Shown: positions 6,515 through 51,632, counted from the stretch's first letter. The stretch is DNA of 64,000 bases from Candidatus Oxydemutator sp. (GCA_965203445.1 OZ241883.1:2240001-2304000), one strand, 5' to 3'. The notes: generated by a model not told the origin, from the sequence alone. Numbers and translations: made by a program.

Positions 6515-6528
6515 GGCGCGGCCGTTGC

Positions 6529-7296: not shown

Positions 7297-7877
7297 CACA
7301 GGTAACGATAGGCGATGGCGGCGGCCAGCAGCGCGACGACGATCCAGCCGGCGACCTCGATACGCTTCTCTATATAGGAAAACAGCGCCGGGCCGAAGCG
7401 TTTCATCAAAAACCCGACCAGCCCGAAACGCGCGCCGCGCCCGAGCAACGACGCCAGCACGAACAACGCCAGGCTCTGGCCAAGCACGCCGGCGCTGATC
7501 GTGAACAGCTTGTACGGCACCGGCGTCAACGCGGCGACGAACACGATCCACACGCCCCACTCGTAGAACATTGCAACCGCGTCCTGGTATTCGCCCCAGT
7601 AGCCGGCGGCGTGCAGCCACGGCTCGATCCAGTCGAACAGGAACACGCCGACGGCGTAACCAAAGATGCCGCCCAGGGCCGAGAACACCGTCGTCCACGC
7701 GACCAGGCGCGCGGTGCGCGGCGGGTGCAGCGCGCACATCGGTGCGAGCATCACGTCGGTCGGAACCGGGAACACCACCGACTCGCAAAAACTCAGGCCG
7801 TAGAGGTACTTCTCGGCGCCGCGCCTGCCGATCAGCGACATGGTCGCGGCGTAGGGGCGGGCGAACAGCGACATCAT
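7296..7877 (-). CDS. yqaA: YqaA/DedA family membrane protein
   Basis: LSFCESVVFPVPTDVML, TPVPYKLFTI, GRGARF. Confidence 0.85.
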   Translation of the reverse strand: MMSLFARPYAATMSLIGRRGAEKYLYGLSFCESVVFPVPTDVMLAPMCALHPPRTARLVAWTTVFSALGGIFGYAVGVFLFDWIEPWLHAAGYWGEYQDAVAMFYEWGVWIVFVAALTPVPYKLFTISAGVLGQSLALFVLASLLGRGARFGLVGFLMKRFGPALFSYIEKRIEVAGWIVVALLAAAIAYRYL

Positions 7878-8572
7878 CCGCCGTTTGCGCCCACCAGCGG
7901 CACAAACCTGACCGGCAGCAGGCGGCGTTCGGAATAGCCGCGGCGGGTGCGCGTTATCAACGTCAATTCCTGGGTCTCGGTGGCGTCGCCCAGCGGCACC
8001 ACCGCGCGCCCGCCGACGGCCAGCTGATCGAGCAGCGCCGACGGCATTTCGGCGGCGGCGGCGGTGACCATGACGCCGTCGTACGGCGCGAACTGCCGCC
8101 ACCCCCTGGCGCCGTCACCGCGGCGAAAGTGCACGTTGGCGTAGCCCAGCTCCCCGAGCAGCGCGCGCGCGCGCTGGTAGAGCGCCGCGACGCGCTCGAT
8201 GGTGAACACGCGCGCCACCAACGCCGCAAGCACCGCGGTCTGGTAGCCGGAACCGGTGCCGACCTCGAGCACCTGCCGCACCTTGCCCGCGCGCAGCAGG
8301 GTCTGAGTCATGTAGGCGACGACGTACGGCTGCGAGATCGTCTGCCCGTGGCCGATGGACAGCGAGCGGTCGGCGTAGGCCAGGCTCTCGAAGCCGGTCT
8401 CGACAAAGCGGTGGCGTGGCACCTCGACCATCGCCTTCAGCACGCGCTCGTCGCCGATGCGGCGGTCGCGCAGTTTCGCGGCCAAGCCCTCGCGCAGCGA
8501 GCGCGAAAAGCGGCGCGACGCGGCGCTTTGTCCGCCGCCTCGTTCATCGAGGAAGCCACGACGCGCGCTCAT
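7874..8572 (-). CDS. pcm: Protein-L-isoaspartate O-methyltransferase
   Basis: [36 protein letters not shown]. Confidence 0.95.
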
Positions 8573-9318
8573 CGCCGTTCGAGCCAGCGCCCGACCTCGT
8601 CGAGCGACTGGTGGCGCGTCAAGTCCACCTGCAACGGCGTGACCGACACGCAATCCTCGCCGATTGCGTGAAAGTCGGTGCCGGCGCCGGCGTCCTGTTC
8701 GGGGCCGGCGGCGCCGACCCAGTAGATCGGGCGCCCCTGCGGATCCTCGGACTTGATCGCCGGTTCGGCGCGGTGGCGGCTGCCCAGGCGCGTCGCGCGC
8801 TCGCCTTTGATCGCGGACAGCGGCCGATCCGGGATGTTGACGTTGAGTATGAACTCCGCCGGCAACGGTTCGCGCTGAAGCCGCTCGACTTGGCGGCGCG
8901 CGATTTGCGCCGCGTCCTCGAGGTGGCGCGGATGGCTCGAGCAGACCGAGACCGCGATCGCCGGAAAGCCGAGAAAGCGCCCTTCCATGGCCGCGGCCAC
9001 GGTGCCCGAGTAGAGCACGTCGTCGCCCAGGTTGGCGCCGGCGTTGACGCCGGCGACCACCATGTCCGGCTCGCGCGCCTCGAGCAGCCCGGTCACCGCG
9101 AGATGGACGCAGTCGGTCGGGGTGCCGTCCACCGCGTAGCAGTTCTCGTCCATGCGGCTCACGCGCAGCGGGCGCTCGAGCGTCAGCGAATTGCTGGCGG
9201 CCGAGCGGTCGAGGGTCGGCGCCACTACCGTGACCTCGGCGACTTGCGCGAGCTGACGCGCCAGAATACGAAGACCGCGGCTGTCGTAACCATCGTCGTT
9301 ACTGATTAAAATGTGCAT
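8569..9318 (-). CDS. surE: 5'/3'-nucleotidase SurE
   Basis: [32 protein letters not shown]. Confidence 0.97.
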
Positions 9319-11723: not shown

Positions 11724-12208
11724 CAGACTGCCTCCATGACCGCCGGTTCGCTCGCGGGCGGCGTATTGTGCTCGACCCAACGTTCCTCGCTCGGGCCGTC
11801 GCCGGGGGCGCCACCGGCGAGTCTTTCCTTTTTCCAGAACGGCGCCCTCGCCTTCAATTCCTCGACCAGCAAGCGATTGACGGCACAGGCCGCGCGCCGG
11901 TGCGCGGCCCAGACCGCGACCGCGACAATCGCATCGCCCGGATAGACCCAACCGACGCGGTGCGCGATGAACAGGTCCTCGACGGCGTGCAGTCGGCGCG
12001 CCTCCCGCGCCGCGCGACGCAGGAAGCGCTCCGTCATAGCGGGGTAATGCTCAAGCCACATCGCCTCGACGGCGGCGCCTTCGTTGCAGTCGCGCATCGT
12101 GCCGACGAACAGCGACTGCGCGCCGAAACTGCCGCGCCGCAAACGCTCCTGGTGCGCCCGCACCTTGCGCCACGGATCGAACGGTTTTTCAAGGATCTCT
12201 ATTTCCAA
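11723..12208 (-). CDS. moaE: Molybdopterin synthase catalytic subunit
   Basis: GAQSLFVGTMR, LEHYPAM, HRVG, AHRR, LKARAPFWKKE. Confidence 0.93.
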   Translation of the reverse strand: MEIEILEKPFDPWRKVRAHQERLRRGSFGAQSLFVGTMRDCNEGAAVEAMWLEHYPAMTERFLRRAAREARRLHAVEDLFIAHRVGWVYPGDAIVAVAVWAAHRRAACAVNRLLVEELKARAPFWKKERLAGGAPGDGPSEERWVEHNTPPASEPAVMEAV

Positions 12209-36765: not shown

Positions 36766-37429
36766 TGGCCACGGCCTCGGTGATGCTTTGCAGCGCGGAT
36801 TCGGCGGCGCGTTGCTCGGCCTTGCGCTTCGACGCGCCGCTGCCGCAAGCCTCGAGGCGCAGATCGGAAACCCTGCACGCGACCTCGAAAAACTTCTGGC
36901 CGTCGCGTCTGTGCTCGCACAGCACCTCGTAGATCGGCAATCCGGCGCCGCGCGCCTGCGTGTATTCTTGCAACCTGCTCTTGGCGTCCTTCAGATCATC
37001 ACCGGAAAGCGACGCCAGCGGGCCGGCGAAAAGCGCGCCGACAAAGTCGCGCGCCGCCGCCAAACCGCGTTCCAGATAGAGCGCGCCGATGACGGCTTCG
37101 AGGGCGTCGGCGAGTATCGAGTCGCGCACGCCGTCGCCTTTGTCCTCGCCAGGCCCCAGCACCAGGAACTCGCCCAAGGCGACCGCACGCGCCAATTCGG
37201 ACAAGGTCTCGCCGCGCACCAGGCGCGCACGCAACTTGCTCAAGACGCCCTCATCGGCGTCGGCGAAGCGCGCGTAAAGCAGCTCGGTTACGACCAACTG
37301 CAACACCGCGTCGCCCAGAAACTCGAGACGCTCGTTGTGCGCCGCGCCGGCGCTTCTGTGGGTGACGGCCGCGCGGGACAGCGGCCGTTTCAGAAAATCC
37401 GGATCGAGCAGGTCTGATAGTTTCGGCAT
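36758..37429 (-). CDS. rnc: Ribonuclease III
   Basis: NERLEFLGDAVL, ADALEAVIGA, dsRBD. Confidence 0.97.
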   Translation of the reverse strand: MPKLSDLLDPDFLKRPLSRAAVTHRSAGAAHNERLEFLGDAVLQLVVTELLYARFADADEGVLSKLRARLVRGETLSELARAVALGEFLVLGPGEDKGDGVRDSILADALEAVIGALYLERGLAAARDFVGALFAGPLASLSGDDLKDAKSRLQEYTQARGAGLPIYEVLCEHRRDGQKFFEVACRVSDLRLEACGSGASKRKAEQRAAESALQSITEAVANV

Positions 37430-38280: not shown

Positions 38281-38398
38281 GCCTGGCGGTGTCCTACTCT
38301 CACACGGGGAGGCCCCGCACTACCATCGGCGATGTGCCGTTTCACTTCCGAGTTCGGAATGGGATCGGGTGGTACCAGCACTCTATGGCCGCCAGGCA
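38281..38398 (-). rRNA. rrf: 5S rRNA, not linked to a 23S gene
   Basis: TGCCTGGCGGCCATAG...CCCATTCCGAACTCGGAAGTGAAAC...CGCCGATGGTAGT...GAGAGTAGG..CCGCCAGGC. Confidence 0.97.
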
Positions 38399-38572: not shown

Positions 38573-39109
38573 AACGGGATGTATGGGCTTGTCAAACCGA
38601 AGCACAAATGTCCTATTGTTTCCAAAGCGCAGATGTCCTGTTGTTGGCAGGGCTTAGCGCTTTCATGGTCTCCCCGCCAGCGTCTCCACGGGTGATCCGG
38701 CGCCGGTCTGTGGCCTGAACCGCAGCGCCGCCTGGTTGTCGCCTTATCCACTACAGATGGCAATTGTTTTGCGTCCACTGGCGCCGCCGGTGCCTCGCCC
38801 AGGCGATGCACCTAGTAGGCAGTTCGCGCGTGTTTCAGTTGTTGAGGGATTGGCTATACTGGTGATGCTACGGGAAAGCGATCGCCCTTCGATCCGAGGA
38901 GAAGTTTCAGTTGTTGAGGGACTGGCTATACTGGTGATGCTGCTATCTGCGGGCGCGCGGGCACGGGCAGATCGGGTTTCAGTTGTTGAGGGATTGGCTA
39001 TACTGGTGATGCGCCGCCGCGCGCGAGACCGACGCCGAGGATACCGCATGTTTCAGTTGTTGAGGGATTGGCTATACTGGTGATGCCGAGGGGTACGCGG
39101 GGTAGGCGC

Positions 39110-39137
39110 TTGCGGACGGGCAGGGTTGTGATACACT
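39110..39137 (+). promoter_or_regulatory. Putative sigma70 promoter inside the array insert
   Basis: TTGCGG-N16-TACACT with extended -10 TG. Confidence 0.5.
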
Positions 39138-39143
39138 TCGCCC

Positions 39144-39286
39144 GTCACTCTTTGGGATTGGTTATACTGGTTTGAGGGCGGTGACGCCATCTTCTGCGGG
39201 TGGCGGAACCGATGGCAGAAGATGTGCAAGCGTCAGGAGACCGTCCTCCTCCTGCAATTTAGTAGCCGCCCTCATTCCTTTTGTTT
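39144..39286 (+). ncRNA. Candidate structured small RNA with a degenerate half repeat
   Basis: GGGATTGGTTATACTGGT (17/18 to repeat nt 15-32); stems TGAGGGCGG/CCGCCCTCA, TGACGC/GCGTCA, CATCTTCTGC/GCAGAAGATG; T-rich end. Confidence 0.45.
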
Positions 39287-39604
39287 CGCCCTTTTTCTTT
39301 GGTACAGCAGAATCCCGACGCGGCGCCTGTCAATGTATTCCCACTTCGCGCGCAGCACGGTCACAAACACCGAGCCGTCCTCGTGCTCCTGCGCGACCCC
39401 GAGAATGGGACGCGCCTTGTCCTCGCCTCGGAACACCTTGATATAGTGCCTGCGGTATTCGCCTGGCCACGAATACCAGGCCAGCCACTCCTCGTCGGCA
39501 TCCTTCAGCGTCGGTAAATAGAAGTTTGCGTATCGCTCGCGCCAAGTGCGCCTCCCCTTTTTGCCGACGACGACGTGGGTTGCGCCCCCCCAGCCGAATC
39601 TCAC
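39272..39604 (-). CDS. PBECR2-like RNase toxin domain (phage MuF C-terminal type), standalone or a gene fragment
   Basis: H...K....RERYANFYLPTL...EEW....YRRHYIKVF...DRRRVGILLY; frame stays open to the repeat at 39636. Confidence 0.65.
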   Translation of the reverse strand: MRFGWGGATHVVVGKKGRRTWRERYANFYLPTLKDADEEWLAWYSWPGEYRRHYIKVFRGEDKARPILGVAQEHEDGSVFVTVLRAKWEYIDRRRVGILLYQRKRAKQKE

Positions 39605-42600
39605 GCCCCCGGCGGGCTCTCCCCGCGTTTTGATGGTTTCAGTTGTTGAGGGATTGGCTATACTGGTGATGCGGTCGGCGCCGGTGGCGAACCACCAGAA
39701 CTTGCGGTTTCAGTTGTTGAGGGATTGGCTATACTGGTGATGCCGAAATCCAGGGGCGCGTGCTCGCGCCCGACGACGGGTTTCAGTTGTTGAGGGATTG
39801 GCTATACTGGTGATGCAGAGGTTTCCTTTGCCGAGTTGGACAAGCGTTGGGGTTTCAGTTGTTGAGGGATTGGCTATACTGGTGATGCGCTTGTGCCAAC
39901 GCCTGCGCACGCGGCGCATTGATGTTTCAGTTGTTGAGGGATTGGCTATACTGGTGATGCCTTTTGCTCGACGCCCTGCAACATTTCCACGTTCGTTTCA
40001 GTTGTTGAGGGATTGGCTATACTGGTGATGCCGCAGCGCGCCGAAGTTCCGCAGCACCCACTCCACGTTTCAGTTGTTGAGGGATTGGCTATACTGGTGA
40101 TGCCCGGCGCCGGCAGCGCGAGCGGCGGCAGGTCAATCGTTTCAGTTGTTGAGGGATTGGCTATACTGGTGATGCCGACGACGCGCTCTACGACGCGGAG
40201 CTTCATGAGTTTCAGTTGTTGAGGGATTGGCTATACTGGTGATGCGATCGCGCAGATGCCGAAGGCCGACATCTATGGCGTTTCAGTTGTTGAGGGATTG
40301 GCTATACTGGTGATGCCGCAAGGTCAAGACTTCCGCGGCGCATAGCCGACGCCAGGCGCATAGCCGACACGGCTATACTGGTGATGCCGCAAGGTCAAGA
40401 CTTCCGCCCCAGGTTTGTGGATGTTTCAGTTGTTGAGGGATTGGCTATACTGGTGATGCTGTTTGGTGTTGTCGAGCGCGGTGGCAGAACTGGTGTTTCA
40501 GTTGTTGAGGGATTGGCTATACTGGTGATGCATACCCGCCCGGCCAATACCACTATATCCCCGGGTAGTTTCAGTTGTTGAGGGATTGGCTATACTGGTG
40601 ATGCGTCAAGTATGGGCGTTCGACGGCCTCCAGCCTATGTTTCAGTTGTTGAGGGATTGGCTATACTGGTGATGCACGGCGCAGGGGAAAACGCGCCTGA
40701 GGTTATGCCGTGTTTCAGTTGTTGAGGGATTGGCTATACTGGTGATGCGGCGCGCTGACTTTGTTCTTGGTCACCTTCGCGGTTTCAGTTGTTGAGGGAT
40801 TGGCTATACTGGTGATGCTCTCACAAACAGTCTGGCCGCGTTTCACATCCCAGTTTCAGTTGTTGAGGGATTGGCTATACTGGTGATGCCGCGTTGGCCG
40901 ACACCGCCGCGCGTGTGCTCGGCAGTTTCAGTTGTTGAGGGATTGGCTATACTGGTGATGCTGATGAAGGCGATTGTGGACATGAGGCCGGCGCCGTTTC
41001 AGTTGTTGAGGGATTGGCTATACTGGTGATGGCCGCGACTGGCGATCAATGCGTGGCGGGGAAGCCGCGTTTCAGTTGTTGAGGGATTGGCTATACTGGT
41101 GATGCTGGGTGTTCGCCAAATCGAAATACGCGGTCAACGCAGTTTCAGTTGTTGAGGGATTGGCTATACTGGTGATGCGAAGTGATCCGCAAGTTCCCCG
41201 CGCACATGACAAGTTTCAGTTGTTGAGGGATTGGCTATACTGGTGATGCCTCCAGCATGGCTTTCTGTTTCGAGTCCAGCCCGCGTTTCAGTTGTTGAGG
41301 GATTGGCTATACTGGTGATGCAGCTCTACACCTCCGTCGTGGCAAATAATGTCCGGAGTTTCAGTTGTTGAGGGATTGGCTATACTGGTGATGCTCCCGT
41401 GCGCGTTCCGCTGGTCGAAAAGAGGCGGCGTTTCAGTTGTTGAGGGATTGGCTATACTGGTGATGCTGTCGTACACGAGCGACGACGGCGACAAGTTTTA
41501 TCGTTTCAGTTGTTGAGGGATTGGCTATACTGGTGATGCATCCCGACTCGTCCGGCAGTCTTTGGGCTCAGGGGTTTCAGTTGTTGAGGGATTGGCTATA
41601 CTGGTGATGCTGCGCTCGGATGGCTGGCGGCGTCGAAGGTCTTGACGTTTCAGTTGTTGAGGGATTGGCTATACTGGTGATGCGCGGGAGGTGATGACGG
41701 CCCTTTCCGAAAACGTGTAGTTTCAGTTGTTGAGGGATTGGCTATACTGGTGATGCATAAAGCAAGGTGTTGATGAGACTATTAGTTTCGGGTTTCAGTT
41801 GTTGAGGGATTGGCTATACTGGTGATGCAATCTCGAAGTGGACATCGCCGACCTGCTGAACGAGCAGTTTCAGTTGTTGAGGGATTGGCTATACTGGTGA
41901 TGCCGTAGCCGCACAAAGATTAAACAGAAAATGGATGTTTCAGTTGTTGAGGGATTGGCTATACTGGTGATGCCGGCGCCGACCCCGCCCCCGGATCCCG
42001 TCCGCGACCGTTTCAGTTGTTGAGGGATTGGCTATACTGGTGATGCGCTGGACCTTCTGCACGAGGCGGCGGTCGGCGCAGGTTTCAGTTGTTGAGGGAT
42101 TGGCTATACTGGTGATGCGTGATGCGCGCTCTTGACCTCTTCTGCGGCGTCGGGTTTCAGTTGTTGAGGGATTGGCTATACTGGTGATGCTTAGAAGTGA
42201 AACAATTATGGTTCGAGGACGCCAGTTTCAGTTGTTGAGGGATTGGCTATACTGGTGATGCGGACGGCACGGCAATCAGAATAAAAGACGTACCGAGTTT
42301 CAGTTGTTGAGGGATTGGCTATACTGGTGATGCCGGTGATAGAGAGAATCAAGAGGGAGGAAAAGTGAGTTTCAGTTGTTGAGGGATTGGCTATACTGGT
42401 GATGCGGCACGTTTGCAGGCACGACCTTGTCGGCGGCACGTTTCAGTTGTTGAGGGATTGGCTATACTGGTGATGCGCGGCTACGCCGTTCGGCCAGGGC
42501 ACCAGGGTCTGTTTCAGTTGTTGAGGGATTGGCTATACTGGTGATGCCGGGGCCGCCGCCGACGTTCCCTTTGTCTCAACAAGTTTCAGTTGTTGAGGGA

Positions 42601-42694
42601 TTGGCTATACTGGTGATGCAGAAAGGCACGCAGAGTTCAGAGATGCTTATCGCAGTTTCAGTTGTTGAGGGATTGGCTATACTGGTGATGCCCC

Positions 42695-42727
42695 ATCCCA
42701 AGCCCTTGTTTTACAAGGGCTTGGGAT
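42695..42727. repeat. Perfect 15-bp inverted repeat right after the last CRISPR repeat (leader element or array terminator)
   Basis: ATCCCAAGCCCTTGT-TTT-ACAAGGGCTTGGGAT. Confidence 0.8.
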
Positions 42728-42784
42728 ATTTCACAGGGGGCAGAATTTTCGCAAGTAGAGCTATTGCACCAAAGCACGGCGAAT

Positions 42785-42812
42785 TTGCGAAAAGTAACGA
42801 TTGTGCTACGAT
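42785..42812 (+). promoter_or_regulatory. Promoter of tracrRNA-1
   Basis: TTGCGA-N16-TACGAT with extended -10 TG, just before the anti-repeat. Confidence 0.6.
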
Positions 42813-42818
42813 CATGAC

Positions 42819-42946
42819 TCCAGTATAGCCAATTCTTGATACTCTGTAATCATAAAAAAGTATCTTGAACGGACCTCTGCATTTTTGCACGTCTGCCTTC
42901 ACTCGATGAAGGATTAAGAAACCGCCTCCGGGCGGTTTCTTTTTTT
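42819..42946 (+). ncRNA. tracrRNA-1, Francisella II-B-type scaffold
   Basis: Anti-repeat CCAGTATAGCCAATTCTTGATACTCTG, then TAATCATAAAAAAGTATCTTGAACGGACCTCTG...CACGTCTG, close to the F. novicida tracrRNA as recalled. Confidence 0.9.
42916..42946 (+). terminator. Intrinsic terminator of tracrRNA-1, possibly also serving cas4
   Basis: AAGAAACCGCC-TCCG-GGCGGTTTCTT-TTTTT. Confidence 0.85.
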
Positions 42947-42953
42947 CCGACTC

Positions 42954-43547
42954 TCACAATCGGTCATTACAAAAATTCACGTATTCGCAGGTGCAGCACT
43001 GGGCGACCGTCGCACTCGATTCCGGCTTCAGTCCACGCCGCAGCATCCGCCTGATTTTATCCGCCACCTCTGCAACCAGCCGACGCTTGTCCGCGTCAAT
43101 GTCAATCGTATGCAGAACCTTCCCTTTCCCGACCAAGAATCCGGCCGTGCTCGGCTTGGAAAAATGCTCCTCTAACAGCAAGGCATAAGCCGCCAGTTGC
43201 AGTTGGTCGCCGCGCTTCCCGCGGTTTGCGGAAAGCTTGAACTCGACGGCGTACACCGCCTCGTCGGTTTCCACCGCCATGTCCGCGATGCCATGCAGTC
43301 CCAACGCATCGCTGCGCACCGCCAGATTGTGATGGGTTTTCCCGCTCCGCAAATTGAATCTGGAGAGATTGCGACGCTGCCATAATTTTTCCTCTGCCCG
43401 GTGGAAGTGCTCTCCCTGCCCGACCCAGACGGGGCGATGAAAAGCAACATCGGTCAACTCCATGTAATACACGACCCGCGGGCAGTAGCACCACTGCCGG
43501 ATTAAATTTACCGGAATGCTATATGGCAAGGGTTTCCTCCCAATCAT
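42954..43547 (-). CDS. cas4: CRISPR-associated Cas4
   Basis: RQWCYCPR, HGIAD, VEFK, QLAAYA, CCTCEYVNFC Fe-S cysteines. Confidence 0.95.
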   Translation of the reverse strand: MIGRKPLPYSIPVNLIRQWCYCPRVVYYMELTDVAFHRPVWVGQGEHFHRAEEKLWQRRNLSRFNLRSGKTHHNLAVRSDALGLHGIADMAVETDEAVYAVEFKLSANRGKRGDQLQLAAYALLLEEHFSKPSTAGFLVGKGKVLHTIDIDADKRRLVAEVADKIRRMLRRGLKPESSATVAQCCTCEYVNFCNDRL

Positions 43548-43821
43548 GGAAATCGCTCTTTTCGTGGCCGACAAAATAACTCCGCCCCCGCCCGTTGAAG
43601 TTGGTATGCGTAATAAATGCCTTGTCCGCCTGCCCCAGGCTATCGTGCAGGTAGCGTTTAATCGCCTCCAGCTCCGCCAGCGTCAGATACCCCCAAAACA
43701 CCGACTTCTGCACGGCTCTGAGCCCGTGCTTCCCCAACTCCATAAAAACGCGGGCGCGCGTTTTATTGTCTTCCACGTCGTAGCTGACCAGATACTCCTG
43801 CCGCAATGGATAATTCTTCAT
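43519..43821 (-). CDS. cas2: CRISPR-associated Cas2
   Basis: YLVSYDVEDNKTR, VQKSVFWG. Confidence 0.95.
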   Translation of the reverse strand: MKNYPLRQEYLVSYDVEDNKTRARVFMELGKHGLRAVQKSVFWGYLTLAELEAIKRYLHDSLGQADKAFITHTNFNGRGRSYFVGHEKSDFHDWEETLAI

Positions 43822-43830
43822 GCCGCCAAA

Positions 43831-44787
43831 TCACCACTTGAACAAATAAGGCCGATAGTTTTGCTCGCCGTAGAAATGACCGCACAAACGATAAACTTGG
43901 CGCTGGATAATATGTTCCAATTTGTGCTTCTTTCTGCGATACGTGTATTTCTTGGCGCACGTTTTCTGTATTTCCCCTATCAACGCCTTCTTCAGGGCGA
44001 CATCCAGAACCGTTCGCCCCTCGCTGCGGGAGCGCAACTTGACTACGGCGCGATCAACCACCCACGCGCGGTATTCTTCCATGACGTCGAGCACCAGCGC
44101 CATTTTCCCCGGCCGCCGGACGTGCATGACGCCGAGATAAGGCTCCAGCCCGGCGTTGATAATCGCGCTCAGGATATAACTGCTCAACACCGCGTAACCG
44201 AGATTGAGCATGGCGTTGTTGATTTCCCCGCTTCCCCGCCCCTCGCGCCTCGTGAACGAAGCCGAAAACAGCCGCGCTTGCCGCAAACCCTGAAAATAGG
44301 CATTGGCGCCGGCACCCTCGAAACCGAGCAAGGTCTCGAGGTCTCTCGCGTGTGGCGCCTTGTCCGCGTGTGCCCGCAATTCATCGGCGGCGGAGCGCAG
44401 AAACGGATGCCTGTGATATTTGTCGAGATGGTTCAGCACGGCGCGCTGATTTTTCAGTTTTGCGACGACGATCCTCCGCGCCAGCGGCATCGTGTCGCGC
44501 TGGCAAAAAGCCATCTGCGCCTGGCGCACCGCCACCACACCGTGTTGCGACTGTCCCAAAATCGCCGAGTGTGCGACACCGCGAAAATCCAAAAAAAATA
44601 ACTTGATGCCGCGGCTGCTGAAAGCCTCGATCAGATCGCTCGATATGCTGACGCCGCGTTTGGCGATGGAGACGGTGCACAGGCGATTGAGCGGATAGTG
44701 CCTGCTTTCTCCATCCTGCCTGACCACCAAGCGATGGCTGTTCAGCCCCAAAAAAGCCCCATAGTCGCCGATGACAAGGTGTTTCAT
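43831..44787 (-). CDS. cas1: CRISPR-associated Cas1, II-B type
   Basis: MKHLVIGDYGAFLGL...GIKLFFLDFRG, GFEGAGA..YF, NAMLNLGYAVL, GLEPYLGVMH, LDVMEEYR. Confidence 0.96.
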   Translation of the reverse strand: MKHLVIGDYGAFLGLNSHRLVVRQDGESRHYPLNRLCTVSIAKRGVSISSDLIEAFSSRGIKLFFLDFRGVAHSAILGQSQHGVVAVRQAQMAFCQRDTMPLARRIVVAKLKNQRAVLNHLDKYHRHPFLRSAADELRAHADKAPHARDLETLLGFEGAGANAYFQGLRQARLFSASFTRREGRGSGEINNAMLNLGYAVLSSYILSAIINAGLEPYLGVMHVRRPGKMALVLDVMEEYRAWVVDRAVVKLRSRSEGRTVLDVALKKALIGEIQKTCAKKYTYRRKKHKLEHIIQRQVYRLCGHFYGEQNYRPYLFKW

Positions 44788-44827
44788 GGTGTGATCGTGC
44801 CGGCCAGCCGCGGGCTTGGCCGCGTAC

Positions 44828-44862
44828 TTGACCTGGTCTATAGACCGGTATTATAGTCTATA
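44828..44862. promoter_or_regulatory. TA promoter/operator overlapping a possible divergent cas1 -10
   Basis: TTGACC, palindrome GGTCTATAGACC (44835-44846), TATAGT on +, TATAAT on - (44850-44855). Confidence 0.5.
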
Positions 44863-44880
44863 TAACACAGGGAGCAGGCC

Positions 44881-45123
44881 ATGACCAAAGAAAACATCGG
44901 ATCTTACGAGGCGAAAACGAAGCTGCCCGAACTGTTGAGGCGGGTGCAGGCGGGCGAGGCCTTTACGATAACCAGACGTGGCAAGCCCATAGCGGACCTG
45001 CTGCCCAGCCAGGCCGGGGCGCGACAAAAGACGGCGGCCGCCATTGACAACATCGCTGCCATGGGCAAACGGACGGTCTCCGAGCGTCGCCTGAAAGAAT
45101 ATAGAGACAAAGGCCGCGAGTGA
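44881..45123 (+). CDS. Phd/YefM family antitoxin
   Basis: IGSYEAKTKLPELLRRVQAGEAFTITRRGKPIADL. Confidence 0.92.
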   Translation: MTKENIGSYEAKTKLPELLRRVQAGEAFTITRRGKPIADLLPSQAGARQKTAAAIDNIAAMGKRTVSERRLKEYRDKGRE

Positions 45124-45545
45124 CGACCTTCGTGCTGGATAATTCAGTGGCAATGCGTTGGCTGCTCGCAACTCCCAGCCCTTCGGGGCAGAAGTATGCC
45201 GGGAAGGTCCTGCAAAGCATGAAAGACGCGGACGCGCTCGTGCCCGCGCTCTGGCACCTCGAAGCGGCCAATGTCCTGCTCCACGCCGAAAGAGACGGCC
45301 AGATAACGACCGGCCAGGCACAAGCGTTTGTCTCACAACTGAAAAATCTGCCCATTACGATTGATTCACCGACCCAGACAAATTCGGTCGACCGAATTAT
45401 GGCGCTGGCTCGGTCATACAACCTCAGCAGTTACGACGCCGCCTATCTGGAGATTGCCACCCGCAATTCGGTACGGCTCGCCACCCTGGACAGATCGCTG
45501 GCAAAAGCAGCGAGGAAAGCGGGAGTAGGTATCTATCTGAAATAA
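45120..45545 (+). CDS. vapC: VapC PIN-domain toxin
   Basis: FVLDNSV, WHLEAANVL, LSSYDAAYLE, LATLD; GTGA overlap with the antitoxin. Confidence 0.92.
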   Translation: MTTFVLDNSVAMRWLLATPSPSGQKYAGKVLQSMKDADALVPALWHLEAANVLLHAERDGQITTGQAQAFVSQLKNLPITIDSPTQTNSVDRIMALARSYNLSSYDAAYLEIATRNSVRLATLDRSLAKAARKAGVGIYLK

Positions 45546-45561
45546 GAAAGCACCAGTGTGC

Positions 45562-45828
45562 TCAAGTAGTCTTCGCCTTCAGCGGGAACCGCGCAGGATT
45601 TCGGATGATTTCTCTGCTCAGATCAACGTCTATCATCGGCCAGTAATAATGATCCGCAGATAATTGCTCCACTTTAAGGATCGCCTCAACGGGCTGCCCC
45701 TTGAACCAGGGAAAATCCTCGTAGGACAGAAATAACTCCTCATCATGTGCAAGCAGCCATATACCGTGGGTAGATATATGGGTAACTTCAACTTCTGAAG
45801 TAGTCTTTCCAGGCATTGATGAGTTCAT
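45562..45828 (-). CDS. DUF2442 family protein
   Basis: THISTHGIWLL...ELFLSYEDFPWF...WPMIDVDLS..P.RFPL; ATGA overlap with the cas9 stop. Confidence 0.85.
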   Translation of the reverse strand: MNSSMPGKTTSEVEVTHISTHGIWLLAHDEELFLSYEDFPWFKGQPVEAILKVEQLSADHYYWPMIDVDLSREIIRNPARFPLKAKTT

Positions 45829-48800
45829 TGTGATGGTTCTCTATAGATTTCCAATTCCTTATAACCTATCTCAGTTTCTTCCATCGTTTCATCATCCCTA
45901 AGTGTTGCTCGGGGACCCAGTTTGGTGATAGCCCACGGCCCACTTTTCCCATCAATACGAACCCTATCACCCCGTTTGAATATTTTGAGTATTTTATAAT
46001 TCACTGGAAGTTCTTTATCTATTTCATTTCTTTCATAAACTGGCTGAGACTTATCCTTCCAATAAAACTTATTCGTAATACGAACAGCATCTATTTTATC
46101 TTTTCCATCTTTATTATATTGAATAACCATAACTTTATCCCAAGAAACCGTCCGTCTAAAGTGATGCATGCCTTTTGTATTTTTATCTTTTCTTCGCCAC
46201 ATCTGTTGAACTCCCATGCCCCCTCGGACACCAGGACCCACCCTTACGCAACGAACTGACCGTGTATTCTTGGGGTGTAAAATATGCTCCTGGGGCAGCC
46301 TCAGAAAATAAGAATGCGTAATTGTTCTCTTATCACCGCTTCCATTTGTCATTTCTTTTTTTCTGTCATCCGGCATATCATCGATTTTTTCCCATGCTTT
46401 TTCCATTGCCATCCTGATAGGCTCGGACTGTATATTCCCGATATTCTTTTTTTGAATCTTCTCCAACGGTTTTCTTTGTGTAATCATGCCGTCCAAACAA
46501 CGCAAAGGTTCAGTATCCGTTTTGCTGCATTCGATCTTTCCTTCATTTCTCTTGTCTTCAACATACCAACCCGAAGATTTATCGGGAGCCAACAAATTCC
46601 CTCTGCCGTCTTCTCTTAGATTGATAAAAGCAGGGGCATTTTCCTTCCTTGCCTGCTTACGAACATCACTATTCAAGCGTTTGATCGCTTCCCAATCTAC
46701 ATTTGCTGCCAAGACCACAGCATCAAGGGCATGGTGGAACTCTCTGATGGGATCATCTTTCGCTGGCTCAACAATCACCTTAAACCTTTTCACGGCAATT
46801 TTGGTCTTTATCATAACTTTGATATTCGAGATCTCCCCCGTACTTTTGTCTACAACTTCCACATCGCACCATGGTACATATTTACCATTACCTCTTTTCC
46901 TGTAACACTTCTTCAGTGTCCCAACCAATTTATTACCCTTGACAGATAGCCAATCATTACCTGCTTCCTCATCATTCTTACGATATTTAAGCTTTACAGA
47001 AGCATTAGCACCTTCCAACAATTTACTTAGTTTTTTATCCTTTGAGAAAACATCTTCCAATAACAACTCTAATTCTTGATCAAGCTGTCCTTTTGTCTCA
47101 TAGAGAGTTTCATCTTTCTTTTTTCCACTCGTTTTGCCTTCCTTTACTACTTCAAGGACGAAGTTTTTATTGTTACAGTTCTCTAACCAAAACTGGTTTG
47201 TCCCTACTGCATTATCATCCGGAGTCCCGACAAGCATCACTTTCCCATTATTTTTGTCCGTTCGAATTTCCAGCCAGTCAGTTACCCCTTCATCATAGTC
47301 TTTACAGATAGAAACCTCCCCATCAAATAAATACTCATCCAACTTCAGCTTTGAAAGTTCATATTTGAATTCTTCACCTGCCTTTGTTTTGTATGGATTC
47401 CTAAATCGTATAGCCCGCTTCTGCCGATCCATAAACGGAAACCAGAACCGACGAAGATAAATTGAATCACCTGAACGTATTTTGTGAATCACCTCTGATG
47501 GCAAGTTAAATTCATCCATAAAAGCCTGTTTCAAGAGTTTCGCCCCGAACATGGTGTGCTGTGGGGCAGCAAGCATATCCTCAGGCAGTCTCCTGTCTGC
47601 CTCCAAACGGGATTGAATGAATTTGTGCTTCTCAGGATTATTATTCTCAATCAAAGAAAGGACATTCTTATCCAGAGGCTCCCTCCGGTTGTGCTTATCA
47701 ATATTGCAAATTGAATGACCGATTACTTTATTCCGGGCAATATTTCCCCCACCTTTTGATTTAGGGAACAGATGATCAATATGAGCGTCACTATGCAAAA
47801 ACTCACCACAAAATATGCAACGGCCACCTTGATCCGCCCTAAGCGTGGCCATATCCCCACCCGCCGACTGTTGATACTGTTTCGGCTTGAGCTTCTTCTT
47901 CAGCTTCTTACCTTCACTCTGAGCCAGAGCACTGATATCAAAACGCGCTGTCTCTATACCTACATGTTCAATAGGTATCGGCGAATTTCTGAGGTCTCGT
48001 ACCTCCTGCTCCTTCAACATCTTGCGCACAACAACAGTGATTTTTTCAACTTTCTGCCGTATTGAGGGTGGCGCGTCATCTTTCAATGTTAAAACACGCT
48101 CTTCATGAAGCCTCGCCCATGAATTGCCCTTGGTTTCATCGCGCTCCAAAAGGTTCAGTTTTTGTTCCAGGTGCTTAATACAAAAACCTGCTCTGCCGGG
48201 CTGTTCCCCACAAATAATATCCCTGAGAATATCTTTCTTGCCTCTCGCCTCGTTCTCTGCGGGGAGAACATAGCGATTTCCCCTACTGTTAGTAAAAAAT
48301 TGATTAATAGTTTCCTGATTTTTATTTTTGATAACTCCGTCTAGTTCTTTCACAAACTCCAAACTATTCATCAACTTCTGTATTTCACTCTCATCCAACT
48401 TGTCTTTATTCCCATTGGCACGCCTCACATTCATTTGACGCAACTCAATTTCAAACTGAAGTCTGCGAACGTCTTTCCTGCGCTTTTTAGGGAGATTAAG
48501 TCCGCAACGTGTTCCATCATCGTCAGTAGCTGCCGGGCATTTGCCCATGCTATTGCGGTTGTTGAATCTTTTCTTGCGATATTCACGATTGACTACCTTT
48601 GTTGCTGCCTTAATCCATCGCTTTTTTATTTCTGTAGGGGTAGTACCTGCTCTATGAGCGATTTCACTGGCCTTATTATGAACATCCGCCATTGATTGTT
48701 GCCAATCCTGTTTTATTTTGGCCATAGACAAGATCTGTCTGTTCTGATTGACTTTGCTTTTCTTCAAACCCTGGAAGGTTTCATCCAGGCAAATTTGAAA

Positions 48801-49790
48801 GCGATCCTGCTCCAAGCCACAGGCGACTTTCATCAGGTTTTCCAACCCGCTTAGCATTTCCTCACGATGGCGATTACGATGTGGACGATAAACTTTGCCT
48901 TCCTCAAAAAGCTTCTCACCTGTTTGTAGGCCAAGCATAGTCATAATGCGAGTAACAATTTCTTCTTCCTGAGGTATGGTACTTCCAGCCCCATAGACCA
49001 AACCAAGGCGTTCTTTGATCCAGCTCTTTATATCCTCTGGCACAGCATCTTGAAGTTTTATTTCCAGTGCCTCATAAACCACTTCCTGCCTGGCAAGCTC
49101 CTCCATGACTGAAGAATCTTTTTCGGCTTTTTTTCTGAGATCGTGAATCTCTTTAGCTTTCTCATAAAGCTCACCCAGGCAGCTCCGTTCCTCTTTTATT
49201 TTTATAAAGGAAACAGTTTTGTCAGAAAATTTTTGAGACTCACTATGCCTTGAACGCCTGTTGAATTCTTGTCTTGCGTTGTCTTGGGCTTGTTTGTATT
49301 CCTCGTCTGATTCATTCTTGTATTTCCTACGCCCTTTCTCGTTAAATTCCGCGGGCGCATTAAATTCCTGAAGAAGAATCCTGTCAACTTCTTTAACTAT
49401 TAGAGGGCATTTAGGAGATTTACCATCATCAGTTTTGACAACGAGCAATTCAAGCAAGCTCGCATAGTCCCATCCACGATAATGGGCTAGCGCATAAAGG
49501 CGGTTTCCAAGAGAAGCCTTATCTCTCTCAGTCTGTTTCTCCCCCGGTTTCGCATTTCTTGGCTCCAACCCCATGCCTTTAAGAAGCGCATAGAAGTCGC
49601 GTAGCCGCCTCGCCTTGGAAAGTTTCCGCCTGCGTTGTCCCCTGTTGACGCGACGTTTTTGGAGAGTATCCGATAGCGTAGTGCGATGTTTGAGAACTTT
49701 ATAATCCAGGACTTCATTACTTGAACTCAACAAGCCAACGCCTGTATATGCGTAACCGAAGTCAATCCCTAATCTGAAGGACTTATTCAT
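45825..49790 (-). CDS. cas9: Divergent Cas9, 1321 aa
   Basis: RuvC-I LGIDFG, Arg-rich bridge helix, RuvC-II GIETARF, HNH CIFCG..HIDHLFPKS..N..HSICN, RuvC-III HHALDAVVLA; start at MNKSF with AGGTGG RBS. Confidence 0.93.
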   Translation of the reverse strand: MNKSFRLGIDFGYAYTGVGLLSSSNEVLDYKVLKHRTTLSDTLQKRRVNRGQRRRKLSKARRLRDFYALLKGMGLEPRNAKPGEKQTERDKASLGNRLYALAHYRGWDYASLLELLVVKTDDGKSPKCPLIVKEVDRILLQEFNAPAEFNEKGRRKYKNESDEEYKQAQDNARQEFNRRSRHSESQKFSDKTVSFIKIKEERSCLGELYEKAKEIHDLRKKAEKDSSVMEELARQEVVYEALEIKLQDAVPEDIKSWIKERLGLVYGAGSTIPQEEEIVTRIMTMLGLQTGEKLFEEGKVYRPHRNRHREEMLSGLENLMKVACGLEQDRFQICLDETFQGLKKSKVNQNRQILSMAKIKQDWQQSMADVHNKASEIAHRAGTTPTEIKKRWIKAATKVVNREYRKKRFNNRNSMGKCPAATDDDGTRCGLNLPKKRRKDVRRLQFEIELRQMNVRRANGNKDKLDESEIQKLMNSLEFVKELDGVIKNKNQETINQFFTNSRGNRYVLPAENEARGKKDILRDIICGEQPGRAGFCIKHLEQKLNLLERDETKGNSWARLHEERVLTLKDDAPPSIRQKVEKITVVVRKMLKEQEVRDLRNSPIPIEHVGIETARFDISALAQSEGKKLKKKLKPKQYQQSAGGDMATLRADQGGRCIFCGEFLHSDAHIDHLFPKSKGGGNIARNKVIGHSICNIDKHNRREPLDKNVLSLIENNNPEKHKFIQSRLEADRRLPEDMLAAPQHTMFGAKLLKQAFMDEFNLPSEVIHKIRSGDSIYLRRFWFPFMDRQKRAIRFRNPYKTKAGEEFKYELSKLKLDEYLFDGEVSICKDYDEGVTDWLEIRTDKNNGKVMLVGTPDDNAVGTNQFWLENCNNKNFVLEVVKEGKTSGKKKDETLYETKGQLDQELELLLEDVFSKDKKLSKLLEGANASVKLKYRKNDEEAGNDWLSVKGNKLVGTLKKCYRKRGNGKYVPWCDVEVVDKSTGEISNIKVMIKTKIAVKRFKVIVEPAKDDPIREFHHALDAVVLAANVDWEAIKRLNSDVRKQARKENAPAFINLREDGRGNLLAPDKSSGWYVEDKRNEGKIECSKTDTEPLRCLDGMITQRKPLEKIQKKNIGNIQSEPIRMAMEKAWEKIDDMPDDRKKEMTNGSGDKRTITHSYFLRLPQEHILHPKNTRSVRCVRVGPGVRGGMGVQQMWRRKDKNTKGMHHFRRTVSWDKVMVIQYNKDGKDKIDAVRITNKFYWKDKSQPVYERNEIDKELPVNYKILKIFKRGDRVRIDGKSGPWAITKLGPRATLRDDETMEETEIGYKELEIYREPSQ

Positions 49791-49803
49791 AACCCACCTG
49801 AAT

Positions 49804-49939
49804 GTAAAACAATACCCTGCATAAAGCAGGGTATTGTAGATTTTGCTCGCCCTCAAGCGGTGACTTACTGAAAACAGAGCATCGCCTGCAAAAAACGATG
49901 GTGCCAGCAAGCACCTCGGACTTTTTTCAGTTGTTGAGG
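49804..49939 (-). ncRNA. tracrRNA-2 candidate, non-Francisella scaffold
   Basis: CCTCAACAACTGAAA is the perfect complement of repeat nt 2-16; hairpins GGTGC/GCACC, CATCG/CGATG, GCTTG/CGAGC; 12-bp terminal hairpin. Confidence 0.7.
49805..49837 (-). terminator. Terminator-like hairpin between tracrRNA-2 and cas9
   Basis: ACAATACCCTGC-TTTAT-GCAGGGTATTGT-TTTA. Confidence 0.7.
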
Positions 49940-49943
49940 CCTG

Positions 49944-49971
49944 ATTGTAACGACGAAGAAAAAACTGTCAA
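49944..49971 (-). promoter_or_regulatory. Near-consensus sigma70 promoter for tracrRNA-2/cas9
   Basis: TTGACA-N16-TACAAT; predicted start site falls within the anti-repeat. Confidence 0.75.
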
Positions 49972-49987
49972 GCCCTGATGTGTTGTT

Positions 49988-50638
49988 CTACATTGGCGTC
50001 GCAGGGGTTGCGAAGTCGTCGTCGTAGAAATAGTGTCCCTTCAGCCGTTTGACGTTGAAAATGAGTATTTCGCTATGGAACAGTATGCCGTCGAACACGT
50101 TCTTCGGGAGGCTGATTATCGAGCATATCTCGGGATAAGTGCCGTCTACAAACTTGATCCAGCGCCTCGATTGTTGCGTCTGGTTCAGGCGCAATCCGTA
50201 AGGGGTGAACAGCACAATCGGGATGCTTTTGCCGAACAGTTCTATCGCTTTTTGCAGCCACACTTCCGGCAGCAATGGCCTGCCACCATAATTTTCTACC
50301 AGATGCGCTTTCGTCTTCGGGTCAATGTTGAACGGGGGGTTCATTATCACGAGGCCAGGCTCCTTCAGCTCTCCCTTCTTTACCTTCAGATAATTCCTGA
50401 CCCGCGTCCTCGGAAAACCCTGCTTTTCTATATCAATGCCGACAACGTCAAACCCGTTCTCCTCGAAAGGCCGCAGCAACGAACCCTCGCCCACGCACGG
50501 GTCGAGCACCGGCTTCGACTTGTCAATGCGCTTGCCGACCAGTTCATACAGGAACCGGCTGACACCTTCCGGCGTCTGTATCGTGGATTTCTTTTGTCGG
50601 TTGTAAAAATTATTGCGATCAACTCTGTACATCGTCAT
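49988..50638 (-). CDS. Small orphan amino (N6A/N4C) DNA methyltransferase
   Basis: IQTP, VLDPCVGEGSLL, GIDI, IMNPPF; GGAGGAG RBS. Confidence 0.85.
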   Translation of the reverse strand: MTMYRVDRNNFYNRQKKSTIQTPEGVSRFLYELVGKRIDKSKPVLDPCVGEGSLLRPFEENGFDVVGIDIEKQGFPRTRVRNYLKVKKGELKEPGLVIMNPPFNIDPKTKAHLVENYGGRPLLPEVWLQKAIELFGKSIPIVLFTPYGLRLNQTQQSRRWIKFVDGTYPEICSIISLPKNVFDGILFHSEILIFNVKRLKGHYFYDDDFATPATPM

Positions 50639-51632
50639 CAACTCCTCCGATTGTATTCCTTCGCCCGCTCCCCCACAAACTCCGAATCGCCGCGATTCCG
50701 TGGCCGCCGTGATGTCGGCATTGTGCCAAATCTTCCGGGCCAAGGCCGCCCAATCCGTACACCGGCATCGGCGCGTCTTGCACCAGCGTCGCAAAAGCAT
50801 CCCATCCCAATCCGCGCGCGCCGGGGTGTCCCGGCGTCTCCCGCACCGGTCCCAGCACCGCGAAGTCGGCGTCGAGCGAGGCCGCCGTTTTCAGTTCGTC
50901 CGCGTTGTGGCACGAGGCGCCAAACCAACGGCCCGCGGCCACCGGGCGACGGCGGCAGCGTCGCAATGCGGCGGCGCTCAGGTGCACGCCGGCGGCACCG
51001 GCGCCCGGGTGCGCAAGCAATGCGGGGTCGCGGTCGTGCAGCAGGACGCGCGCATGAAAAGCAGCGGCATCAGTCGCCATGCGACGAGCCAGTTCCTCGT
51101 AATCGTCGTCGTCCAGGCGATTGTCCCTGAACACGGCGAGGCGCACGCCGCGTTCCAGCGCGCGGCGGAAGCATTGCAGAAAGCGCGCGGGGTGTTCGAC
51201 GTTCGGGGTGATCAGGTAGCGGTCGGGAAGCCTCAGCGCGTTGATCATGGCGCGGCTTGCGGGCGGAAAGTCCGGCGCGCGCAGGGCCTCGATTTTCGTC
51301 CAGCGCAAGTCGTTGTCGCCGGCCAGGCGCGGGGCGCCGTCGAAGTCGCGCACCGTGAACACGTGAAAACGCAGGCGGCGCTCCCGGTAGCGCCACGGAA
51401 ATTGAATCAGGGGTTCGGAATTGCGCGCGACGACGCCGGTTTCTTCCTTCAGTTCGCGGGCAAGCGCCCGCTCGGGGGATTCGCCCGGCTCGATCTTGCC
51501 GCCGGGAAACTCGCGCAGGCCGCCCTGATGAACTTCGGGACGGCGCACAGAGGTCAGAACGGAGTCGGCGCGTCGCACCAGGCCGATTGCGATGGAGATC
51601 ACGGGGAATGGATCGGAGTCGGGCAAGAACAA
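50619..51632 (-). CDS. mutT: MutT Nudix hydrolase fused to a thiamine-phosphate-synthase-like domain
   Basis: EFPGGKIEPGE..ALARELKEETG, FPPAS, ASCHNADEL, GPVRETPGH, YGLGG. Confidence 0.85.
   Translation of the reverse strand: MFLPDSDPFPVISIAIGLVRRADSVLTSVRRPEVHQGGLREFPGGKIEPGESPERALARELKEETGVVARNSEPLIQFPWRYRERRLRFHVFTVRDFDGAPRLAGDNDLRWTKIEALRAPDFPPASRAMINALRLPDRYLITPNVEHPARFLQCFRRALERGVRLAVFRDNRLDDDDYEELARRMATDAAAFHARVLLHDRDPALLAHPGAGAAGVHLSAAALRRCRRRPVAAGRWFGASCHNADELKTAASLDADFAVLGPVRETPGHPGARGLGWDAFATLVQDAPMPVYGLGGLGPEDLAQCRHHGGHGIAAIRSLWGSGRRNTIGGVDDDVQS

Follow-up and report, generated by a model that had tools for sequence, protein, structure and literature searches.

Two tracrRNA-like genes beside one CRISPR array: a probable natural hybrid of a type II-B module and a Cas9d-related effector in Candidatus Oxydemutator sp.

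Here we describe a type II CRISPR-Cas locus in a 64,000 nt stretch of Candidatus Oxydemutator sp. (GCA_965203445.1 OZ241883.1:2240001-2304000), hereafter the window, in which a single array is accompanied by two different genes resembling trans-activating CRISPR RNAs (tracrRNAs). The first, tracr-1, lies between the array and cas4, and the second, tracr-2, lies directly upstream of cas9 on the opposite strand. An earlier note on this DNA had pointed to both genes and had read the system as a chimera; the two tracrRNA-like genes are confirmed here and the chimeric reading is strongly supported. We consider it probable that the locus is a natural hybrid, in which a type II-B adaptation module, array and tracr-1 are combined with a Cas9d-related effector cassette that brings its own tracr-2. 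tracr-2 would load this effector, and tracr-1 is most likely a passenger. Coordinates are those of the window unless they are preceded by G000 C1.

Results

Layout of the locus

The CRISPR-Cas island is the only one of its kind in the window and has a G+C content of 0.37-0.60, against 0.64 for the genome. All of its cas open reading frames (ORFs) are open. The 37-nt repeat (GTTTCAGTTGTTGAGGGATTGGCTATACTGGTGATGC) is identical in 44 of its 46 copies and the spacers are mostly 33-38 nt long. The principal elements are listed here, the 22 II-B loci being those compared with the window below.

38832-42691, plus strand: CRISPR array, 46 repeats of 37 nt
42785-42812, plus strand: tracr-1 promoter, TTGCGA (inside the family-conserved TTTGCGAAA)-16-TACGAT
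42819-42946, plus strand: tracr-1, with the anti-repeat at 42820-42851, the core (TGAACGGACCTCTG...CACGTCTG) at 42866-42895 and the terminator at 42916-42941
42954-43574, minus strand: cas4 (TIGR00372, 97.5 bits), 54-76% identity to the 22 II-B loci
43519-43821, minus strand: cas2 (TIGR01573), also in the 22 II-B loci
43831-44787, minus strand: cas1 (TIGR00287, 202 bits), 62-83% identity to Cas1 of the 22 II-B loci
45562-45828, minus strand: DUF2442 gene (PF10387), its start overlapping the cas9 stop; the last piece in common with the II-B loci
45825-49790, minus strand: cas9, 1321 aa, Cas9d-related
49803-49941, minus strand: tracr-2, with the anti-repeat at 49939-49925, hairpins at 49915-49900 and 49900-49880 and the terminator at 49837-49809, doubling as the cas9 leader
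49944-49971, minus strand: promoter of tracr-2 and cas9, TTGACA-16-TACAAT, with 11/12 consensus positions

The effector is related to Cas9d

The cas9 gene begins at an ATG at 49790 (MNKSFRLGIDFGY...), behind the ribosome-binding site (RBS) AGGTGGG. A TTG at 49910, which gives the longest ORF, was rejected in favour of this ATG, and tracr-2 therefore lies wholly upstream of the gene. Across 17 aligned members of the Cas9 family the catalytic residues D10, E613, D672/H673, N696, H1020 and D1023 are invariant and the RuvC and HNH motifs are intact; the Zn-ribbon residues C418, C429, C537 and H540 are likewise invariant.

Neither the II-B model TIGR03031 nor the Csn1 model matched the window Cas9. 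Its best NCBIfam matches were Cas9d, at 114 bits (NF049971, cut-off 375), and then IscB. When a profile built from the 17 family members was searched against the PDB, its matches to Cas9d structures covered the RuvC-II/HNH region and had E-values from 5e-42 to 2e-36, and FnCas9 did not appear at E up to 1. The AlphaFold model of residues 1-620 (predicted local distance difference test, pLDDT, 79) had as its best folds the Cas9d structures 9k32 (2.9e-6) and 8zq9 (3.6e-5), and that of residues 1001-1321 (pLDDT 69, the first 93 residues poor) had 9auf (1.8e-10) and 9lgi (9.8e-10), followed by 9k32, 8w2z and 9k31. For this C-terminal part the II-C Cas9s came at ~1e-4, four to five orders of magnitude behind Cas9d, and FnCas9 was in neither of the two top-50 fold lists. 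Beyond the nuclease motifs there is no detectable similarity to Csx12, the REC, WED and PI parts being Cas9d-like. Among characterised Cas9s, both the profile and the fold searches place Cas9d closest to the window Cas9.

The Cas9 family to which the protein belongs is rare, isolated and unannotated. It comprises 23 other proteins among 5.8 billion clusters, and at 50% clustering 27 representatives reached E <=1e-30 among 1.84 billion (phmmer, residues 1-1200 as query). A gap in E separates the last family member (7e-30) from the first outsiders (1e-15), for two of which Cas9d is the best NCBIfam assignment, with a score above the cut-off in one case and below it in the other. Ten other family members that were scanned scored 84-132 bits on the Cas9d model, and the NCBI names of two members are 'HNH endonuclease' and 'hypothetical protein'. 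Searching 401 genomes of the phylum and 61 relatives returned only the window's own Cas9 gene and one weak HNH match. Loci of the Cas9 relatives were also sought in genome, metagenome and viral contigs and, by tblastn, in plasmids, with no confirmed locus, and the N-terminal extensions of miscalled homologues, used as a proxy for the upstream DNA, gave no usable similarity.

tracr-2 lies between its own promoter and cas9

The anti-repeat of tracr-2 (CCTCAACAACTGAAA, 49939-49925) is a 15/15 complement to repeat nt 2-16, just as the earlier note had it, and no other 12- to 15-mer copy occurs outside the array in the complete 2.38-Mb genome. Allowing up to 2 mismatches, 0.03 matches to the 15-mer are expected in the window and 47 were found, namely 46 in the array and one in tracr-2. 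The 15-mer of tracr-2 is not a product of chance. Moreover, it fits the repeat variant of this locus (T11, A14, G16), which reads TTGTTGAGG as against TTGCTGGG in most relatives.

The promoter TTGACA-16-TACAAT (49971-49944, minus strand) is the only promoter-like site in 49650-50150. The earlier note had the anti-repeat start right after this promoter; the promoter itself stands, but the predicted RNA may begin 1-4 nt inside the 15-mer, at ~49938-49935, because a normal discriminator is 6-8 nt, and 11-14 of the 15 anti-repeat bases would then be in the RNA. The anti-repeat is followed by a ~105-nt scaffold with predicted hairpins, in which a UUGCU-loop/AGCAA pseudoknot is possible from the letters. 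A terminator closes the gene, with a 12-bp stem (49837-49809) and then TTTT, 12 nt ahead of the cas9 RBS. The predicted multi-hairpin fold, also claimed earlier, has a minimum free energy of -52.4 kcal/mol (z -4.5), with 0/200 shuffles folding as well. A search for RNA runs that contain the stretch returned none.

The predicted duplex of tracr-2 on repeat nt 2-16 has -24.2 kcal/mol, and tracr-1 gives -7.4 on nt 1-17 and -23.8 on nt 17-31, so that the strongest pairings of the two RNAs fall on adjacent, non-overlapping halves of the repeat. A duplex between tracr-1 and tracr-2 themselves, taken over the whole RNAs, was discarded as not meaningful (7/200 shuffles as good). Nothing near a gathering score was obtained in an Rfam search with tracr-2. 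A marine metagenome contig covers 49805-49894 and extends to either side of it with a related hairpin, in which the GGUG...CACC stem is kept and the loop differs, and a similar RBS context; tracr-2 therefore has relatives. The visible overhang of this contig ends 1 base before the anti-repeat would be reached.

A split pseudo-repeat (UUUUCAGU, 10 nt, UUGAGGG) is present within tracr-2 at 49872-49848 (minus strand) and can pair with the RNA's own anti-repeat. We rejected this pairing as marginal, since 28/500 shuffles reach it and it adds only ~3.7 kcal/mol to the fold.

tracr-1 and the adaptation module are of type II-B

As stated in the earlier note, tracr-1 pairs with most of the repeat. All 14 nt of the segment CCAGTATAGCCAAT (42820-42833) are complementary to repeat nt 18-31, and the duplex with the whole repeat, with pairing over nt 1-32, is predicted at -32.2 kcal/mol. 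The fold z-score of tracr-1 is -5.1. Signals of its own had also been claimed for it; the terminator is present as an 11-bp stem (42916-42941) and the -35 block TTTGCGAAA is conserved across 22 related loci, but the promoter TTGCGA-16-TACGAT (42785-42812) falls below the threshold of the promoter scan. Against Rfam, tracr-1 matches FtrA (Francisella sRNA A), which we take to be the Francisella tracrRNA, with a score of 41.4 bits (E 0.0029) that falls short of the gathering score of 134.

The related loci were found by scanning one genome per species for the tracr-1 core pattern (TGAACGGACCTCTG, 3-10 nt, CACGTCTG), which gave 22 loci in metagenome-assembled genomes of several phyla. tracr-1 aligns with all of them along its full extent, from the -35 block through the scaffold core to the terminator. 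In 22/22 loci cas1 (62-83% identity to the window), cas2 and cas4 lie beside the core, and a complete 37-nt repeat of the same family (GTTTCAG...TATACT...) is present in 21/22, the array of L015 being cut by the contig end. An exact anti-repeat of at least 10 nt to the locus's own repeat occurs at the tracr-1 position in 16/21 loci, and thus the tracr-1 anti-repeat follows the repeat. The earlier note had likened tracr-1, the repeat and cas1, cas2 and cas4 to Francisella II-B, and tracr-1 does belong to the Francisella/II-B tracrRNA family.

At the cas9 position every one of the 22 loci has a large ORF. Nineteen of these ORFs are 1583-1874 aa long and the three shorter ones (894, 1384 and 1442 aa) appear truncated or miscalled. 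All ten ORFs that were scanned matched the Cas9/Csx12 model TIGR03031, nine above the cut-off and one as a 189-bit fragment. The window Cas9 had no tblastn match in the 22 loci at E up to 1e-3. In 19 II-B loci the 400 nt ahead of cas9 contain no exact repeat match longer than 9 nt, compared with 15 in the window.

A DUF2442 gene stands directly upstream of cas1 in 9/22 II-B loci and is intact in eight (L007, L009, L012, L013, L015, L016, L020 and L022). Its position between cas9 and cas1, both in the window and in these nine loci, makes it a candidate accessory gene of the II-B lineage. In the ninth locus, L014, the gene carries stops (~11925-12180), and in L005 the II-B cas9 is only the 894-aa fragment (5319-8003, 189 bits on TIGR03031); the two are examples of decay in the II-B lineage. 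In L011, at the far array end (8891-8928, with the tracr core on the plus strand), repeat nt 1-17 recur in inverted orientation beside the first repeat, 4 nt away from it, and give a perfect 17-bp hairpin, and a lone 17-nt piece of the repeat 3′ half lies ~740 nt upstream of cas9. Extra anti-repeat fragments of 11-13 nt were seen in L018 and L024, inside coding-like sequence.

The effector cassette ends at a seam and the probable hybrid recurs

A blastn comparison of 42700-51000 with the 22 loci showed homology at 42784-44796 and 45566-45855 and none in 45856-51000. The end of homology at 45855 places the limit of the shared module at the DUF2442 start, which overlaps the cas9 stop. Contigs from another public sample are 95-97% identical to 42700-45789 and then unlike the window, the match resuming only at ~49996, just past the stop of an upstream methyltransferase-like gene. 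Cas1 proteins 93% and 97% identical to that of the window are encoded on contigs of 388831 and 26981 nt, and no listed member of the window Cas9 family is on those contigs. Judging from these comparisons, sister lineages that carry an almost identical adaptation module at this chromosomal site apparently differ in a ~4.1 kb cassette (~45856-49980) comprising cas9 and tracr-2, and the effector exchange looks recent. The proposal of the earlier note, that a foreign Cas9 accompanied by its tracrRNA took the place of a II-B effector, gains support from the Csx12 neighbours in the 22-locus family, the affinity to Cas9d, the end of homology at 45855 and the 0/19 II-B loci with an upstream match above 9 nt.

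We paired Cas9 and Cas1 proteins to one contig by the identical nucleotide size of the contig. Family Cas9s and II-B-type Cas1s share contigs of 562525, 1336783, 21613, 195136, 2443843 and 6212 nt, and where measured these Cas1s are 70-73% identical to that of the window. On the 6212-nt contig the two genes necessarily lie within ~2.7 kb. Such sharing, by at least six other family members, indicates that the hybrid recurs.

The array has sampled invaders

The array is broken at two places. At 39087-39635 there is an insertion of 549 nt, which contains a degenerate piece of repeat as well as an ORF (39272-39604, minus strand) with a PBECR2 phage-type nuclease domain, and at 40317-40422 there is a scar of 106 nt, which contains a half repeat flanked by a duplicated spacer piece. 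The whole array was compared with phages and plasmids and no protospacer match was found; therefore no PAM (protospacer adjacent motif) can be inferred. Spacer 9 (39961-39994) and one spacer of the type I-E array in the same genome have 23 consecutive nt in common, from which it follows that the two arrays sampled overlapping pieces of the same invader. For PAM purposes this overlap yields the 5′ flank only.

A TATACT-like box (repeat nt 24-29), 8 nt before the repeat 3′ end, is kept in nearly all repeats of the window and L003-L024. It could be a -10 element for transcription of CRISPR RNA (crRNA) inside each repeat, or part of the segment that pairs with tracr-1. In the II-C system of Neisseria, crRNA transcription is driven from inside each repeat.

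Other CRISPR systems and neighbouring genes

As the earlier note had proposed, the genome was searched for another cas9, and one was found. It lies at G000 C1 1463602-1466706, encodes 1034 aa and is Csn1 or II-C-like (TIGR01865, 655 bits). The system to which it belongs spans G000 C1 1459715-1466755 and includes cas9, cas1 and an array of 40 repeats, each of 36 nt, that differ from the window repeat and start GTTGTGAATTGCGG. This cas9 has its own 16-nt anti-repeat ~35 nt upstream of the gene on the opposite strand, and its repeat has no match of at least 8 nt to either tracr region. A TIGR03031 scan of the genome, which is scored 100% complete, found no csx12. There is also a type I-E system, with Cas7e at G000 C1 130305-131327 and an array of ~147 repeats at G000 C1 134210-143289.

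Two further features flank or interrupt the hybrid locus.

44881-45123 and 45120-45545, plus strand: Phd antitoxin and PIN-domain toxin, inserted between DUF2442 and cas1; also in close relatives
49988-50800, minus strand: methyltransferase-like ORF of 270 aa, with a weak N6-adenine methyltransferase match and an intermediate G+C of 0.54

The methyltransferase-like ORF is directly upstream of the tracr-2 promoter; it is not in the 22 II-B loci and is common to the sister lineage that has no cassette. On the other side of the array are a lone 5S ribosomal RNA gene (38281-38396, minus strand), ~435 nt from the first repeat, and an RNase III gene (36785-37396, minus strand), ~1.4 kb from the array.

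Discussion

Comparison with known systems

The locus shares with type II-B (Francisella novicida type, cas9/csx12-cas1-cas2-cas4) the order of the adaptation genes, cas4, the 37-nt GTTTCAG... repeat family and an FtrA-matching tracrRNA; cas1-cas2-cas4 stand next to the array and the II-B-type tracrRNA has an anti-repeat to the local repeat. It differs in that the effector is not Csx12, in having a second, unrelated tracrRNA-like gene upstream of cas9, and in the DUF2442 gene and Phd/PIN pair between cas9 and cas1.

Additional Cas9-associated small RNAs are known in the form of the small CRISPR-Cas-associated RNA (scaRNA) of Francisella, whose repeat-like segment pairs with the tracrRNA, and the long-form tracrRNA of Streptococcus. 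tracr-2 is like them in being an additional small RNA gene of a type II locus that has a promoter and a terminator to itself and is complementary to CRISPR RNA. Unlike scaRNA, it has the anti-repeat of a tracrRNA and pairs through it with the repeat of the crRNA, and its internal pseudo-repeat pairing is marginal.

The closest parallels to the effector itself are found in type II-D. In the N-terminal lobe, in the nuclease core and at the WED/PI end alike, its nearest solved relatives are the Cas9d structures 8zq9, 9auf, 9lgi and 9k32, and the conserved Cys and His residues of the family fit the Zn ribbons described for Cas9d in a passage of PMC9755519. tracr-2, with a ~15-nt 5′ anti-repeat, a ~105-nt scaffold and a possible pseudoknot, resembles in layout the Cas9d tracrRNAs in sections of PMC11903963 and PMC12339737; these have a scaffold of ~95-115 nt, including a pseudoknot, behind the anti-repeat and support cleavage even when the repeat:anti-repeat stem is shortened. 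However, the window Cas9 has 1321 aa against ~600-970 aa for Cas9d and scores 114 bits against a cut-off of 375. Moreover, its locus has a full cas1-cas2-cas4 module, whereas II-D loci are said, in the sections of two papers that touch on this, to be without an adaptation module (PMC11706934) or to have one in few cases (PMC9755519).

The loci of Cas12l, a type V effector with a II-B-like layout, are comparable in that, by part of the account in PMC9724661, a different effector with its own tracrRNA stands before cas1-cas2-cas4 and the array. This likeness is one of layout only; the module, repeats and tracr-1 of the window are homologous to those of Csx12 loci, the effector is a Cas9 and there are two tracrRNAs. 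Taken together, the window system lacks the effector of II-B and departs from II-D in effector size, model score and adaptation module, and the description that suits it best is that of a large, Cas9d-related effector which has a tracrRNA of its own and stands in a II-B module that keeps the II-B tracrRNA.

Which RNA serves the effector

Read from sequence, tracr-2 is most likely the working tracrRNA of the window Cas9 and tracr-1 the resident RNA of the II-B module. tracr-2 lies inside the exchanged cassette and directly upstream of the effector, the 19 II-B loci are without such an upstream match, its anti-repeat fits the local repeat variant, and its layout parallels that of Cas9d guide RNAs. 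The near-invariant scaffold of tracr-1, on the other hand, is found only with Csx12, which the window Cas9 does not resemble. According to PMC3936727, Cas9s accept dual RNAs only from close relatives.

We propose that tracr-2 would be transcribed from its near-consensus promoter, with most transcripts ending at the terminator to give a ~135-nt RNA and read-through yielding the cas9 mRNA. The 5′ anti-repeat would pair with repeat nt 2-16, the part left 3′ of each spacer, and the scaffold downstream would be bound by the Cas9d-like REC, WED and PI parts, after which the complex would cut DNA by means of the intact RuvC and HNH sites. tracr-1, with no II-B Cas9 partner in the genome, would be a passenger, still intact because little time has passed since the exchange and because II-B effectors of sister lineages use the same module.

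Several points weigh against this interpretation. tracr-1 shows no decay, departing from strongly conserved columns at 2/70 positions (0-11 in the II-B loci), and its anti-repeat also fits the locus-specific repeat variant, so that its continued use is a possibility; a recent exchange explains an intact tracr-1, and continued use would explain it likewise. As a substrate of RNase III, the 15-bp duplex of tracr-2, which may come down to 11-14 bp in the RNA, is short. The contigs that break at the cassette could hold a copy of a window-type cas9 with <80% identity and not a II-B gene. The links between family Cas9s and II-B-type Cas1s are those of a shared contig, with adjacency implied only for the 6212-nt contig. 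Furthermore, the Cas1 tree is poorly resolved and cannot count exchanges; it contains three label changes, of which well-supported branches force only one, and a single origin of the hybrid is possible and compatible with it. Lastly, G+C content was set aside as proof of separate origin, the gap of cas1 minus cas9 being 0.146 here and 0.006-0.141 in 20 II-B loci.

An extension of the hybrid reading, which we regard as rather unlikely, is that, in natural populations, Csx12 and Cas9d-like cassettes are swapped at the DUF2442 junction of one II-B module, which retains tracr-1 for the carriers of Csx12 and receives tracr-2 with the Cas9d-like cassette. Both tracrRNAs would sit on each repeat of the hybrid in a three-RNA maturation complex, tracr-2 loading the effector from nt 2-16 and tracr-1 on nt 17-31 supplying the RNase III substrate, and the Cas9 family would form a type II subtype of its own, new and intermediate between II-D and the large Cas9s. 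A division of labour is also doubtful and has, in our judgement, a somewhat smaller chance of being correct. Here tracr-2 would load Cas9 from repeat nt 2-16, and tracr-1, on nt 17-31, would form a longer duplex by which RNase III fixes the 3′ end of the crRNA, or would aid adaptation. The two strongest pairings are indeed adjacent without overlap, tracr-1 is fully intact and fitted to the local repeat variant, the genome encodes RNase III, and the hybrid architecture is seen on at least 6 other contigs. However, a 14-nt perfect segment with an imperfect 5′ half is the ordinary II-B design in the 22 loci, and the split pairing therefore needs no special explanation; a recent exchange alone accounts for the intact tracr-1, and a truncated repeat:anti-repeat stem is enough for Cas9d in vitro, as described in part of PMC12339737.

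It is improbable that tracr-2 is a cas9 leader and nothing else, with pre-crRNA pairing tuning termination or RNase III decay of the cas9 message and Cas9 using tracr-1. The sole promoter found upstream of cas9 is that of tracr-2, and with the terminator ending 12 nt ahead of the RBS any cas9 transcript has to pass through the tracr-2 terminator; an intact tracr-1 would suit this idea as well. Yet the REC, WED and PI parts of the effector are Cas9d-like without detectable II-B similarity, the near-invariant tracr-1 scaffold occurs only with Csx12 in the 22 loci, none of the 19 II-B loci has such a leader, and the roles of leader and tracrRNA are compatible. We give still less credence to a dead recombinant, in which neither the array nor tracr-1 or tracr-2 would be more than a relic and the 15-nt match would be the remnant of a repeat. 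The 549-nt insertion with its nuclease-gene fragment and the 106-nt scar in the array, the toxin-antitoxin pair inserted in the cas operon and the missing protospacer match speak for such a history, but 44/46 repeats are identical, the cas ORFs are open with all Cas9 catalytic residues kept, the 15-mer is at the start site of an 11/12 promoter ahead of a structured RNA and terminator, and the 23-nt overlap with the I-E spacer places the same invader in both arrays. Finally, the earlier note had offered the alternative that tracr-1 serves another Cas9 elsewhere in the genome. A second cas9 does exist (above), but it is of the Csn1/II-C type and not Csx12, the complete genome has no csx12, and the second cas9 has its own array and its own 16-nt anti-repeat, with a repeat that matches neither tracrRNA over 8 nt or more; this alternative is almost certainly wrong.

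Significance

In the library searched, the papers that mention two tracrRNAs together with Cas9 deal, judging by their titles and the openings of their abstracts, with screens, library construction or mouse and clinical genetics and not with a natural locus. On the hybrid reading, the window offers a natural case of Cas9 effector exchange within one adaptation and array module, in which the seam is mapped to a few tens of bases and the old tracrRNA stands beside the new. It makes testable a route by which effector and array may become compatible, namely through a short anti-repeat directed at the repeat's conserved 5′ part, and likewise the competition or cooperation of two tracrRNAs on one crRNA. 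The locus also offers a new pair of enzyme and guide for characterisation. Moreover, the Cas9 family is large like the II-A, II-B and II-C enzymes and yet closest to the miniature Cas9d, and therefore bears on the growth of Cas9 from IscB-like ancestors.

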